DNA of 44,234 bases from the sequence record NC_047812.1. One strand, written 5' to 3'. This document shows, in pieces, positions 27,052-32,095 of the stretch. The DNA comes from Escherichia phage vB_EcoS_CEB_EC3a. Both the position numbers and the translations under genes were made by a program. Under the pieces are notes generated by a model. It had not been told where the DNA came from, did no database searches, and saw nothing but the letters and a program-made list of their open reading frames with translations. Each line of letters begins with the position of its first letter. Position 1 is the stretch's first letter.

Positions 27052-28017
27052 ATGAGCTTTACTGTTTACACACGAGAAGAACTATCAAACTCTGAGTACC
27101 ACTCTGAGACTGATCACATCTCCGGTAGCTCGCTTGTCGAGATTATCCATGGTTCGCCAGCTAAGTGGAAATTCAAACAGCGCAATAATGATAGTAAGGC
27201 TCTTAAATTTGGCACGCTGTCACATACTTACATCCTAGAAGGTGACATGTTTGATAAAGAATTCCTTCGAGCCACAGACCTTGACGCGATTGAAGGCTTA
27301 ATTACAAGCCAGACCGGATTATCGGCAGCGCTGAAAAAAGTTGGCGTTGCTGGCACGTCTGGGAAGGGCTATAGCGAACTTGTAGAGATGATGTATCGCT
27401 CCGGTGAGGATTGGCCTGTTAAGTGGCTAATTGAACAGCAGGAGAGTGCTCAGGCGCTTGTGGAGGGTAGGGAGCTAGTTAGCGCGGCAGACTATGACAA
27501 AGTGGTGGCGATGCGTGAGGTTCTTTGTAATATTCCAGCATATAATGCAATAGTGAACAGCGAGACAGCGCAGAAAGAGCTATCAATCTTTGGTGAGATT
27601 CTCGGCGTCGGCGTGAAGATTCGAATTGACCACGTTGATGTTGTTGATGGTGTGGTGTGTATTACCGATCTGAAAACGACAGCCAGCGCATCACCTCAGG
27701 AGTTTGGGAGACTTGCATTCAAGCATGGGTATCTTGCAAAAATGGCTCTACAGCACGATGTTTTTGTTATGGCTTTTAATGAAAAAAGAAAAACAAAAGT
27801 AAGGCTACTTGCAATCGAGAAAGAGGAGCCTTACCTACCAATGCTTTACAACATTACAGAAGAGCAACTGAAGGTTGGTCGCAGAATGTATTTAGAGGCG
27901 CTTGCCACTTACAAAAAGTGCAAAGAGAATGATGTGTGGCCCGGTTATGCAATGGGCGCAACAGAGATCGACCTAGATGTTCCTGAGTGGGATATGAGGA
28001 AGTATAAAGAAATTTAA
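27052..28017 (+). CDS. recombination exonuclease, PD-(D/E)XK family (putative)
   Basis: IDHVDVVDGVVCITDLKTT resembles D..(D/E)xK nuclease core; precedes Erf and SSB. Confidence 0.6.
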   Translation: MSFTVYTREELSNSEYHSETDHISGSSLVEIIHGSPAKWKFKQRNNDSKALKFGTLSHTYILEGDMFDKEFLRATDLDAIEGLITSQTGLSAALKKVGVAGTSGKGYSELVEMMYRSGEDWPVKWLIEQQESAQALVEGRELVSAADYDKVVAMREVLCNIPAYNAIVNSETAQKELSIFGEILGVGVKIRIDHVDVVDGVVCITDLKTTASASPQEFGRLAFKHGYLAKMALQHDVFVMAFNEKRKTKVRLLAIEKEEPYLPMLYNITEEQLKVGRRMYLEALATYKKCKENDVWPGYAMGATEIDLDVPEWDMRKYKEI

Positions 28018-28090: not shown

Positions 28091-28741
28091 ATGCAAATTT
28101 CAGAATCATGCAAATCAATTTTAAACGCGCTACACACTGCCAAGTCGCTATTTGCGAAGGCTGAAAAGTCGAAGCAGAACTCGCACCTAAAGAACAGATA
28201 CAGTACTCTTGATGATGTTCTTGCTGCTGTGGAGCCTGGCCTTGAAGAATGTGGTCTTGTAATGTTTCAGAGCGTAATTGATAGCGAAGATACTGGACTA
28301 TTAAAGGTTGAGACAAAGTTATTCCATGCGGAGTCAGGTGAGTGGGTTAGCTTCTTAATGATTGTCCCAATCAGCAAGAATGACGCTCAAGGTTACGGAT
28401 CAGCATTAACATACGCTCGACGTTACGGAATCACAGCGGCATTAGGACTTAGCCAGGCAGATGATGATGGAAATCTTGCAGCGAAGGGTGTTAAGGACTT
28501 TAAGCGAGAACTTGAGAAGTGCAATACTCTTGATGAGCTTCGCAATGTCTGGAAAGATGCTAAGCAATCACTTGATGCGGCAGGATGGAAGGTCTTTGAA
28601 CCTCATATTATCGAGCGCAAAGCAGAGATAGAGGCTAATGCAGCAACTGGCTTCAACCCGGCAACACCAAAGAAAGTTGCAGAAAAAAGTAGTCCTGAAG
28701 AAAAGATTGAAGTAGAATCACAACAAATCGACACATTCTAA
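28091..28741 (+). CDS. ERF-family single-strand annealing protein (putative)
   Basis: GSALTYARRYGITAALGL segment typical of Erf-type recombinases (by recall); adjacent to SSB. Confidence 0.6.
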   Translation: MQISESCKSILNALHTAKSLFAKAEKSKQNSHLKNRYSTLDDVLAAVEPGLEECGLVMFQSVIDSEDTGLLKVETKLFHAESGEWVSFLMIVPISKNDAQGYGSALTYARRYGITAALGLSQADDDGNLAAKGVKDFKRELEKCNTLDELRNVWKDAKQSLDAAGWKVFEPHIIERKAEIEANAATGFNPATPKKVAEKSSPEEKIEVESQQIDTF

Positions 28742-28785: not shown

Positions 28786-29217
28786 ATGCACGTAATTACT
28801 GGTCAGATTCGACGCGCTCCATTCACTAAGGAAGGTCAGAATGCTAATGGTACCTGGAAAATGTTCGCGGTTGATTTGAGTGAGCGATACAAAGATAAAG
28901 ATGGTCAGACTCAGTATAATAACTATCGCGCCGTCTTTTTCGCTAAAGAGTCAATGCTAGATTGGTACAATGAGGCATTTCAAGAGGGTAAAGTTGTTAG
29001 CGTTAGCGCTGAAAGTTTATCTGTAGATGTTCGTGACAAAGATGGTAAAACATACGTAACCATTAATATGAATAATCCACGACTTGAGTTTAGCCAGCGT
29101 GGCGATGGTGGTGGTCAACAACGGCAACAGCAGCGTCATCAGCCACAACAACCACAGCAACAGCAACAGCAACAACCGAAGCAGCAACAGAACTTCGAAG
29201 ATGATATTCCTTTCTAA
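28786..29217 (+). CDS. ssb: single-stranded DNA-binding protein
   Basis: C-terminal acidic tail ...FEDDIPF identical in type to bacterial SSB tip; Gln-rich linker. Confidence 0.85.
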   Translation: MHVITGQIRRAPFTKEGQNANGTWKMFAVDLSERYKDKDGQTQYNNYRAVFFAKESMLDWYNEAFQEGKVVSVSAESLSVDVRDKDGKTYVTINMNNPRLEFSQRGDGGGQQRQQQRHQPQQPQQQQQQQPKQQQNFEDDIPF

Positions 29218-29223
29218 AGAAAA

Positions 29224-29245
29224 GGCCCCTTTCGGGGCCTTTTTT
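29224..29245. terminator. bidirectional intrinsic terminator
   Basis: GGCCCCTTTCGGGGCC hairpin flanked by A-run and T-run. Confidence 0.8.
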
Positions 29246-32054
29246 ATGAAGCTGTATTTACCTGAAGATATGCACCATTAGTTGCACCAAACCATGCGTA
29301 AGCAGATCCGTAAGTTGTTGGGTTATCATTTAAGATGAAGTCACCCGCTCTAATTACGCACTTTTCTCCATATTTATCAGTTGGCCTTGCACTAAAACCA
29401 TAATCAACATATCTAAAACCAACCTTCGTTACGTTCTTGTTAAGAGGAAAAATCCTTAAGAAGCTAGAAGCCCTAAAGTCATTATTCCTGAAAATTCCTC
29501 CTGTAAAGTTATCCATATCAAACATTGTGGTTAAACTTGAAGCAACAGTATTCATGAACTTGTTGCCTTCATATGTCGGAGCTACTACTTCATAGCCAAC
29601 TCTTAGCTGAACAAATCCTCCATCAAGAATATTGTCCTTAATTGTTGGGTACTGACCGCCGATTGATAACGCCCCAAAGCCAGGTGTAAATTTGCAACTA
29701 TTATTACTAAATATAGTACCAACCCAACCCTGATTTGTAATATATGGCGCTTTCGTGTCTGTCATGGTGTTTCCGGTGATAATCAATCCATTCTTAGCCT
29801 GGACTCCCTCCTGGTAGCCCTGAATCGCTACTCCACCACCAATCATAATGTTATCAGCGATAAGAATATTACTTAGACCTTCGTTAACACCCCAATCACT
29901 TTCTGAATCATTTGTTATCAGTAAGTAGTGAGAAGAAGCCCTGCCAGTAGCGTCTGTAGTTATGATGCTTGTATTCCCTTTGCATATAACATTGTTTGCC
30001 GCAAAAACCTCAACAAATATACCAGAGCCTTCGTAGTAGTTATCAGTAACCGTTATGTTATTGCCAGCAGGCGTTATACGTGACTGGATAGATATTGGAT
30101 AATAGAACTTGTTGGCGTGAGCATAAGACCTTTTGCTTTTTTCGGATATTGCATAATCCTCCGCGAAAGTGTGCCATGCCCTTCCTGACTGTTTTGTTGT
30201 GTTTCCGATAAACTCTGAGTAGTCACAGTTTCTTGTGAGTAAGCAGTAGTTAGCGTTGTATCTGAAGTTTGAATCTCTAAGAGATACGAATGCATTAGAC
30301 AAACCATTAAGAGCATCGGCATTAACAAAGGCCCTCGAGGCATTAACCTCCATACGCTCAATCAAAACTGATGCGCATCCTTCAACCATAAATCCAAACC
30401 AGTCTTCTCTTGGTTTATGCGTTGTATCTAATGGTTGGATTGAGTAATCTGAAAAGTCACTATTCCAGTTGAGGCCGCTAGCTTTAAGTGTGCAATTCTT
30501 TGCGCCGAAAACAACCCTCTCAGGTGATGAACTTCCAGATATATCGATCTCAACATCATTATTGGCAAAAATATCAACATTAAGGCCATTAATGAAGAAT
30601 GCCGTCTTCCTTAATACGTTGTACTTATCATTGTACTGAATATCAGTGGAGAATGAGACTTTCAGTCTTCCAGCGCTAATTCTTACCTTCCTGTTTGTAT
30701 TGTGACCAAGGTTTATACATGCCATAACCGAGGCGTTTGATTCATTAACTCCAGACACATCATGACCAGCCCATTCGGTATGGATATCATCAACACCTCC
30801 CGTAAACCTAACCCAGCAACCATTTTCACCTGGTGATGTCTCACCCGCTCCGCTAAGGAAGTCTGAAAGCGTGGAATATGTACCATCAAATGGAACCGTT
30901 GGGCTAAAAACAGTAATCCCGTTATGTTCGCTCTTACTTACTAATGGACTCCAGTAGAACAGACCGCCACCAGAGTTTGATCCAGAAATGTAAGACCTTA
31001 CATTTGCTAAATTTTTATTCTCATTTGTTTGTTTGATTAGTTCGTAAATTGAATCAACTGAAGATAGTCCTAAATTACTCCTGGCAAGGCTTTTATCCGC
31101 AACATCAGAGAAATTCAATGATTTTTGAAAAGTCTCATTTTTTGAGTAAACATCAAGTAAACCTCTTACTCGCTGGGCGTTAGCGCCTCCAGCTTCATTT
31201 CCGCCAGGCAAGTAGATTGACTCTCTAACATAGTAATTCCTAACACCACCGGAAGTATTGTAACTGATGTGATAACGTCTAAAGTTGCCATCGATACCGG
31301 TGTAGGTTGACACTTGAATATTTCTTGATCCAGTCCCAGTTGCTCCGCCCTCTACAGATATAACAAGCGTAGCATTGCTTGGTACTTTTAATGCTTCTGG
31401 TGCATTTGTGCAAGCAGAGAAAGCAACCCTATAATGACCGCCAACAACAAAATTAAAAGTTTGGAAATCAAGTTCACTTAAAATATTGCTACCATTACCG
31501 ATACCCCAACCAGAAAGTGTAACTAGTGTTCCAGCATCACCAGCACTATTAATTGCCTCAATAGTAGCATCTCTCGCTGATGTGGTTGTATCTCTTGCAC
31601 TAACGGCAGTAGCTGCGCTCTCTGCGGCAGCAATCTGGCTAGCTAAAGCATCCGCTGCTCCTTGCACTGACTGGCTTGCCAATTGCTCAAAGCGAGGCCA
31701 ATCAAAAGAATCCTGACCAATGAAATCAATCAGGCTCTGAATGCTAGTTTCCCTACTCTGATAATAACGAAGTGTCTCCGCTACATTTTGAGCTAAACCC
31801 TGAACACTAATACCATCATGTGCAAGGATTGCATAACCAGTGCCAGCGGGAACGGTTTCACCATTAGGGTTGTATACAGCCATTGATGTGTCGCTGGTGA
31901 TTTCAGAGATAGTGTAAATCTGTACTGGCTCCGTTTTAAACACTAAAGTAGCACCAACGCGAATAAGTGTTAGTGGCATGGTCCATTGAGTGCCAACTCC
32001 AGTAACCTGACCGTTCGCTGCTAAACTGGCAGTGCCAGTATCATAAATTGCCAT
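29244..32054 (-). CDS. tailspike / side tail fiber with parallel beta-helix (putative polysaccharide depolymerase)
   Basis: 936 aa; repeated beta-helix-like motifs (NNVICKGNTSIITTD, NILIADNIMIGGG, IITGNTMTD, IKDNILDGG); start at ATG 32054 with GGAGAC RBS. Confidence 0.7.
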   Translation of the reverse strand: MAIYDTGTASLAANGQVTGVGTQWTMPLTLIRVGATLVFKTEPVQIYTISEITSDTSMAVYNPNGETVPAGTGYAILAHDGISVQGLAQNVAETLRYYQSRETSIQSLIDFIGQDSFDWPRFEQLASQSVQGAADALASQIAAAESAATAVSARDTTTSARDATIEAINSAGDAGTLVTLSGWGIGNGSNILSELDFQTFNFVVGGHYRVAFSACTNAPEALKVPSNATLVISVEGGATGTGSRNIQVSTYTGIDGNFRRYHISYNTSGGVRNYYVRESIYLPGGNEAGGANAQRVRGLLDVYSKNETFQKSLNFSDVADKSLARSNLGLSSVDSIYELIKQTNENKNLANVRSYISGSNSGGGLFYWSPLVSKSEHNGITVFSPTVPFDGTYSTLSDFLSGAGETSPGENGCWVRFTGGVDDIHTEWAGHDVSGVNESNASVMACINLGHNTNRKVRISAGRLKVSFSTDIQYNDKYNVLRKTAFFINGLNVDIFANNDVEIDISGSSSPERVVFGAKNCTLKASGLNWNSDFSDYSIQPLDTTHKPREDWFGFMVEGCASVLIERMEVNASRAFVNADALNGLSNAFVSLRDSNFRYNANYCLLTRNCDYSEFIGNTTKQSGRAWHTFAEDYAISEKSKRSYAHANKFYYPISIQSRITPAGNNITVTDNYYEGSGIFVEVFAANNVICKGNTSIITTDATGRASSHYLLITNDSESDWGVNEGLSNILIADNIMIGGGVAIQGYQEGVQAKNGLIITGNTMTDTKAPYITNQGWVGTIFSNNSCKFTPGFGALSIGGQYPTIKDNILDGGFVQLRVGYEVVAPTYEGNKFMNTVASSLTTMFDMDNFTGGIFRNNDFRASSFLRIFPLNKNVTKVGFRYVDYGFSARPTDKYGEKCVIRAGDFILNDNPTTYGSAYAWFGATNGAYLQVNTAS

Positions 32055-32078
32055 TGTGTAAAGTCTCCATTTGTAAAG

Positions 32079-32095
32079 TAGCACTAATTGCTAAA
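32079..32095 (+). promoter_or_regulatory. palindrome TAGCACTAATTGCTAAA in + orientation between two minus-strand genes
   Basis: Motif family member; possible downstream -10 TGTATAAAA at 32119-32127 would read antisense into primase gene. Confidence 0.4.

Follow-up and report, generated by a model that had tools for sequence, protein, structure and literature searches.

The gene at 28786..29217 (+ strand) of Escherichia phage vB_EcoS_CEB_EC3a (NC_047812.1) raised the question of whether an SSB (a protein that binds single-stranded DNA) with a linker dominated by glutamine is a peculiarity of this phage, and whether such a linker alters what the protein does. The whole stretch of DNA that was analysed, 44,234 nucleotides long, is referred to here as the window. 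The ORF encodes 143 aa plus a stop and was identified as the ortholog of Rtp gp49 and T1 gp27 with the ORF list, tblastn and PHROG 44. Three parts could be distinguished in the protein. An OB-fold, putatively ssDNA-binding domain (aa 1–105; 28786..29100, +) is followed by a Gln-rich disordered linker (aa 106–135; 29101..29190, +), delimited on the basis of sequence, pLDDT, composition and CAA/CAG periodicity, and by an acidic SSB-Ct-like tip, NFEDDIPF (aa 136–143; 29191..29214, +), recognised from its sequence. In translation, the protein reads MHVITGQIRR...NNPRLEFSQR, then GDGGGQQRQQQRHQPQQPQQQQQQQPKQQQ, then NFEDDIPF, with the C-terminal end ...GDGGGQQRQQQRHQPQQPQQQQQQQPKQQQNFEDDIPF, and the stop codon (29215–29217) directly follows DDIPF. 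An earlier interpretation made from the letters alone (the sequence-only reading) had called the ORF an SSB with a DDIPF tip, which was confirmed: the coordinates matched the ORF list exactly and the translation ended in DDIPF. The reading frame is secure, since the OB domain on the 5′ side and the IPF tip on the 3′ side were in frame in every homolog despite changes in linker length.

The SSB profile PHROG 44 was matched by the full-length protein with an E-value of 6.3e-29 and by the OB domain alone with 1.2e-20. By tblastn, the protein was 86% identical to the product of Rtp rtp49, annotated as 'putative single-stranded DNA binding protein, similar to gp27 of phage T1', and the annotated SSB of phage SU57 was 89% identical. 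The OB domain shared 95–98% identity with those of the nearest Rtp-like phages, e.g. SU57, and the closest database match to the SSB of the window was 96% identical (P0001). The threshold of Pfam PF00436 was not reached (14.6 of the 26 bits needed; E 0.034), nor was that of the NCBIfam model TIGR00621 (28 bits against 53.95), to which the OB domain alone gave no match. A single-sequence search of PDB sequences returned only noise (xylanase and PsaH, E ~0.3). When a profile of 38 family members was searched against PDB sequences, the SSBs of Klebsiella (2e-13) and E. coli (2e-10) were retrieved. Once the profile had been rebuilt on the OB domain without the tail, the score of E. coli SSB was 8.4 bits, near noise. 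The full-profile match to PDB SSBs was therefore largely tail-driven and not independent evidence of OB homology, and it was dropped as proof of such homology.

The AlphaFold2 model, computed for a single chain with a 45-sequence alignment, had a pLDDT of ~95 across residues 1–105, with beta strands and one helix (residues 55–64). The pLDDT was <50 across residues 108–138 (108–129 and 131–138), where no secondary structure was predicted. In a Foldseek search against the PDB, the best 17 matches were bacterial-type SSBs and the best 50 were all SSBs or PriB; the T7 gp2.5-type structure (PDB 1JE5) was absent from the PDB matches, and the gp2.5 fold was not the best relative. Residues Y35, Y47 and F52 aligned with the ssDNA-stacking residues W40, W54 and F60 of E. 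coli SSB in a profile alignment that was itself weak, and the position aligned with W88 was not aromatic. Throughout the subfamily, Y47 was invariant and N46 nearly so. The subfamily is compact, with just 69 representatives at 50% clustering, among 1.8 billion proteins, that matched the OB domain at E <= 0.001. By its modelled fold, which is evidence independent of the tail-driven profile match, the protein is an SSB of divergent sequence, and in the same model a disordered linker follows the OB domain, as in bacterial-type SSBs.

The window is the genome of an Rtp-like phage of the Drexlerviridae. The 7-kb stretch around ssb matched phages UALMA_PCEc3 and PsgS01F at 94.6% identity and many Rtp-like coliphages at ~80–87%. 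The first gene of the module to which ssb belongs encodes an exonuclease VIII-like PD-(D/E)XK nuclease (27052..28017, +; Pfam DUF3799, 2.5e-24; PHROG 412 'exonuclease VIII', 3.5e-97). It is followed, directly 5′ of ssb, by the gene for an Erf-family single-strand annealing protein (28091..28741, +; Pfam ERF, 6e-27; PHROG 155, 1.2e-45). Downstream, a gene for a tail fibre of 946 aa (29244–32084, −) is convergent with ssb. The order exonuclease VIII, Erf and SSB, convergent with the tail-fibre gene, is the same in the annotation of Rtp and T1, and the adjacency of Erf and SSB was also found in Tls, Klebsiella phage Shelby (Webervirus) and ACG-M12. The Erf annealase is the likely functional partner of the SSB.

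Immediately after the stop codon of ssb, a GC-rich hairpin (AGAAAAGGCCCC-TTTC-GGGGCCTTTTTT) is flanked by A and T runs (29218..29245; RNA fold −19.7 kcal/mol, z −3.5). Lying where ssb and the tail-fibre gene converge, it probably acts as a bidirectional terminator; in T1, terminators are annotated on both strands at the corresponding place. A consensus terminator scan did not pick up the hairpin, probably owing to a stem that reaches into the T run.

Two further observations were made in the course of these comparisons. The C-terminal residues of Erf (...EEKIEVESQQIDTF) probably form a disordered tail that ends in a conserved motif, SQxIxxF(E/N), which was present in the Erf proteins of the window, Rtp, T1, Tls, Shelby and ACG-M12, although the sequence before it diverges. 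The motif may be a short docking peptide, with the exonuclease or the OB domain of the SSB as its binding partner. Separately, the host labels of some records looked doubtful (PP134917.1, MG065649.1 and MG065646.1). 'Pseudomonas phage PsgS01F' and E. coli phage UALMA_PCEc3 are both 44,679 bp long and matched the window equally well, and 'Campylobacter phage' records carried T1-like or rV5-like coliphage SSB genes.

The linker had been described as almost purely glutamine, and its domination by this residue was borne out. Glutamine made up 18 of its 30 residues (60% Q, with 13% G and 10% P) and 18 of the 25 residues (72%) in the stretch quoted in the sequence-only reading. In the window's remaining 40 long non-overlapping ORFs, Gln made up 3.7% of residues, corresponding to a binomial P of ~7e-21 for the tract, and the richest other 25-aa stretch in the phage proteome contained six Gln. 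The tract is therefore real and far beyond chance. The linker opens with GDGGG, contains three Pro and no aromatic residue, and has four charged residues among its 30, with a net charge of +2. Its Gln codons (10 CAA and 8 CAG) are interleaved without a pure repeat, in a genome that favours CAG 2:1, and a periodicity of 3, 6, 12 and 21 nt was detected with Tandem Repeats Finder. The longest Q run was 7 residues, within a range of 4–11 across close relatives. Being Q/N-rich, of low complexity and low charge, and disordered in the model, the linker has the composition by which Gln-rich or prion-like condensate drivers are recognised.

The view that such a linker is unusual was not upheld by comparison with relatives, among which Q-rich linkers of this kind are common, an outcome that the sequence-only reading had itself named as counting against it. 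The close set consisted of the 120 nearest cluster representatives, which were 83–96% identical to the SSB of the window. Q-rich linkers were found in 121 of 121 close sequences, window included (Q fraction 0.46–0.73, median 0.62), and the window, with a Q fraction of 0.60, ranked 72 of 121, in the middle of the distribution. The Q fraction was 0.70 in Rtp gp49, 0.54 in T1 gp27 and 0.52 in ACG-M12. Since every close relative has a Q-rich tail, this is a trait of the lineage and not a peculiarity of this genome. In the wider subfamily (37 diverse members), Gln was the leading linker residue (median 30%, interquartile range 22–43%), with separate high-Q members (P0139, 51%; P0150, 50%; P0157, 57%) and a low-Q, G/S/N-rich member (P0148, 5% Q). 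Klebsiella phage Shelby has a host-like G/Q/P linker (24% Q, 22% G). The SSBs of Klebsiella and E. coli are nearly the same, yet the linker of Shelby is host-like, so Q richness is not dictated by the host SSB.

The contrast with 'the usual Gly/Pro-rich linker' held in part. The linker is indeed Gly-poor and Gln-dominated relative to bacterial linkers, but the contrast was overstated, as the linker of E. coli SSB is described as Gln/Gly/Pro-rich, with 17 G and 11 Q in 56 residues, two of which are aromatic and two basic (PMC12143593). Among 134 bacterial SSBs surveyed, linkers were mostly Gly-rich and of low complexity, as cited in 10.1101/2022.01.17.476650, and Gly clustering in SSB linkers is conserved in gamma-proteobacteria (10.1101/2021.08.19.456831). 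Nothing relevant was found in the literature on glutamine-rich phage SSB linkers. The Gln-rich linker is visible in the Rtp and T1 records, and no paper discussing it was found.

Linker sequence was far less constant than the domain that precedes it. While the median OB identity to the window was 96% in the 120 close representatives, these had 101 distinct linkers (102 with that of the window), 23–35 aa long and always with the tip in frame. Counted from the first Gln on, the 102 distinct linkers consisted of 74% Q, 8% P, 5% R, 4% K and 3% H. Aromatic residues occurred in 1 of the 102, and the net linker charge ranged from 0 to +4. The sequence and length of the linker drift quickly, probably via slippage and point changes in the CAA/CAG tract. 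A PxxP element, as in Bianco's linker-binding model, is present in the window as PQQP; as any PxxP was present in only 10 of the 102 distinct close linkers, it was rejected as a conserved linker element.

The hypervariability of the linker beside a conserved OB domain could mean that the Gln tract is a neutral by-product of CAA/CAG slippage, that any disordered spacer of similar length suffices and that composition is unselected. The periodicity of the tract agrees with this account, as does the fact that distant relatives work with G/P/A/S/N-rich linkers, one of them with only 5% Q. We regard it as doubtful, while giving it some weight, on the basis of how the Gln codons have changed. Single transversions from Gln codons reach K, E, P, L and H. 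Among such single-transversion neighbours in the 102 linkers, K was counted 106 times and E twice, and P 208 times and L four times, although shared ancestry means that the counts lack phylogenetic independence. Even so, the asymmetry between K and E and between P and L is large and speaks for purifying selection acting on composition, in which polar and basic residues are allowed and acidic, hydrophobic and aromatic ones excluded. Together with the near absence of aromatics, it argues against neutral slippage, as do the interleaving of CAA and CAG without a pure repeat and the high Q content that T1 keeps at only 45% overall identity. A conserved composition combined with free sequence and length, as observed here, is what a functional disordered spacer usually shows.

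We consider it highly probable that the gene encodes the phage's own SSB, the T1 gp27/Rtp gp49 ortholog and last gene of an exonuclease VIII–Erf–SSB module, and that the Gln richness of its linker is lineage-wide and selected by composition only. The OB domain would coat ssDNA from the phage exonuclease and from replication forks. By analogy with characterised SSBs, the host-mimicking tip would recruit host SSB-interacting proteins and probably the adjacent Erf as well. The linker would serve as a flexible, polar, slightly basic, low-charge spacer that behaves like the linker of E. coli SSB, where such a composition supports tail–tail association, cooperative binding and condensate formation. 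Gln richness would be kept by selection on composition only, i.e. for polar residues and for the absence of acidic, hydrophobic and aromatic ones. Experiments on members of the T1/Rtp SSB subfamily were not found in the searchable literature, and we infer the ssDNA binding, oligomeric state, partner binding and linker role of the SSB of the window.

The suggestion of the sequence-only reading that such a linker might change phase behaviour or the recruitment of partners is plausible by analogy with E. coli SSB. In that protein, liquid–liquid phase separation (LLPS; PMC7584906) depends on the linker, as do cooperative binding and the formation of condensates, and partners are bound by the tip (PMC7584906; 10.1101/2022.01.17.476650; PMC12143593). 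Studies of E. coli SSB variants indicated that linker composition and length decide co-condensation (PMC7584906; PMC12143593), that the substitution W136D abolishes condensation and that linker compatibility governs co-condensation (PMC12143593). These findings lend support to a more specific proposal, namely that a Gln-dominated linker alters phase behaviour or partner recruitment relative to the host SSB, e.g. through separate or invasive condensates that capture host partners. The phage linker is also half the length of that of the host, lacks aromatics of the W136/F148 type and has 60% Q compared with 19%. Amide–amide contacts of G, Q and N have been proposed as drivers of condensation, but in the same preprint by Kozlov it is argued that the backbone amides of Gly outweigh the side chains of Q and N, and an N/Q-rich tail from P. 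falciparum did not phase-separate (10.1101/2022.01.17.476650), which argues against a Gln-specific effect. Klebsiella phages of the same family, moreover, use host-like G/Q/P linkers with an almost identical host SSB, so Q richness is not required. We consider the Gln-specific proposal unlikely.

Little credence is also given to a further form of this idea, in which the linker of the Rtp/T1 proteins, being short, poor in Gly, free of aromatics, dominated by Gln and slightly basic, would be an adaptation. The linker would give these SSBs their own cooperativity or condensates, e.g. excluding or invading those of the host SSB, with partners of the host SSB and the phage Erf captured by the host-like tip. 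If this were true, the fast turnover of the linker would stem from tuning or from evasion of sensing by the host instead of neutral drift.

The last five residues of the tip, DDIPF, are identical to those of E. coli SSB (...MDFDDDIPF; PDB 1eqq), and the upstream Phe is also kept. Across the subfamily, I141, P142 and F143 were nearly invariant. A host-like tip on an OB domain that is very divergent from those of bacterial SSBs would fit a protein that is mainly a decoy, with weak DNA binding by the OB domain and a tip that titrates ExoI or RecQ from phage DNA. Interference with host ExoI has been proposed for a phage SSB-like protein with an FDDDIPF motif (10.64898/2026.04.29.721553), which would favour such a role. 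We nevertheless judge it improbable as the main function, given the aromatics aligned with three of the four E. coli ssDNA-stacking positions, the invariant or nearly invariant N46/Y47 and a location beside exonuclease and Erf genes that is typical of a working recombination SSB; the roles of decoy and working SSB can also coexist. That the tract is part of another gene can practically be dismissed: an antisense ORF of 56 aa, nearly pure Leu (MLLRLLLLLLLWLLWL...; 29017..29187, −), and an Asn/Ser-rich +2-frame ORF of 65 aa (29084..29281, +) exist mechanically in the ORF list, but both are unlikely genes and were rejected as mirror artefacts of the repeat, being mirror or frame-shifted readings of CAA/CAG, and indels in 120 of 120 relatives leave the Gln frame continuous with both OB domain and IPF tip, while the hairpin at 29218–29245 falls within the +2-frame ORF.

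Variation at the C-terminus was observed among the homologs. The tip differed among the close homologs P0001–P0120 (NFEDDIPF, QFEDDIPF, QFNDDIPF, QFDDSIPF, QFDSDIPF, TFDGDIPF); some variants had only two acidic residues, and only F-x-x-x-IPF was essentially fixed. Such drift within the genus may reflect a partner specificity that is relaxed or shifted relative to the host DFDDDIPF. Several homologs extended beyond the tip (ACG-M12, L005:601-1062; Vibrio phage K435, L004:595-1131; P0117; P0124), with the pattern ...DDIPF-AP[IVF]GLQ[YF]G....[IM][YH]x[LI], which is absent from the window. Because the extension makes the Phe non-terminal, canonical carboxylate-dependent docking of the tip should be blocked in these proteins. 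A tblastn search with FEDDIPFAPIGLQYGMSNIYVL returned 207 phage records, including rV5-like myophages of 137–150 kb, podophages of 38–40 kb and Vibrio phages, and on account of this variety the tip plus extension looks like a widespread mobile module.

Pieces of host-type tail were also encountered. The C-terminal end of the Tls SSB (L002:601-1026) is NEPPMDFDDDIPF, identical to a piece of the host SSB tail. The E. coli SSB linker motif GWGQPQQP was present in Shelby (L003:601-1065), P0121, P0146 and P0158, and the window retains only the QPQQPQ core (29140–29157) of the host-type tail motif. These host-identical pieces suggest either that C-terminal tails have been swapped with host-type ssb genes or that convergence has been strong.

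Taken by itself, the finding matters little, as the protein is a recognisable SSB of a well-sampled genus in which a Gln-rich tail is the norm. It represents a new allele, with a best match of 96%, of a well-sampled and already annotated family. For the study of SSB linkers, however, the family is a natural experiment with >100 natural linker variants on a near-constant OB domain and tip. In this set, sequence and length vary freely but composition is kept (Gln accompanied by P, R, K and H; E, L and aromatics absent), in contrast to the Gly-clustered linker of the host. The linker properties behind cooperativity, condensation and mixed condensates with host SSB could be probed with this set, as could the question, relevant to the portability of recombineering, of whether the adjacent Erf annealase is fed by phage SSB tips.

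Phage SSBs of the T7 gp2.5 type have an acidic C-terminal tail whose last residue is Phe. These proteins, which are abundant and take part in replication and recombination, are sensed by host defences (Retron-Eco8, Hachiman). The SSB family of the window was considered as a known defence trigger and rejected, as the triggers of Retron-Eco8 and Hachiman are gp2.5-like and that of DRT10 is a two-OB protein of phage Bas52. The SSB of phage HK620, like that of the window, is a phage-encoded distant SSB homolog whose gene adjoins that of a single-strand annealing protein. Its acidic C-terminal ...PF tail is needed to stimulate the neighbouring annealase Sak4 (PMC5928155), which offers a functional parallel for a putative coupling of SSB and Erf in the window. 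HK620 differs in its annealase, which is Sak4/RecA-like and not Erf, and in its tip, NDYPPF.

With E. coli SSB (PDB 1eqq, 1eyg), the protein of the window shares the OB fold, a disordered low-charge polar linker, the ...DDIPF end and the hexapeptide QPQQPQ. The linkers differ in length (30 aa in the window, 56–57 aa in E. coli SSB) and in composition, with 60% Q and 13% G in the former and 19% Q, 30% G and 16% P in the latter. The linker of the window contains no aromatic residue, whereas that of E. coli SSB contains W136 and F148. Unlike E. coli SSB, the window protein lacks an EPPM stretch before the tip, and its NFEDDIPF is less acidic than the DFDDDIPF of the host. The closest of the systems compared were Rtp gp49 and T1 gp27, to which the SSB of the window is 86% and 45% identical, respectively. 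All three fall into a length class of 140–143 aa and share the OB domain, the Q-rich linker and a [DE]D[DS]IPF tip, and the SSB of the window differs from this group only in the exact sequence of its linker and in a few substitutions in the OB domain.
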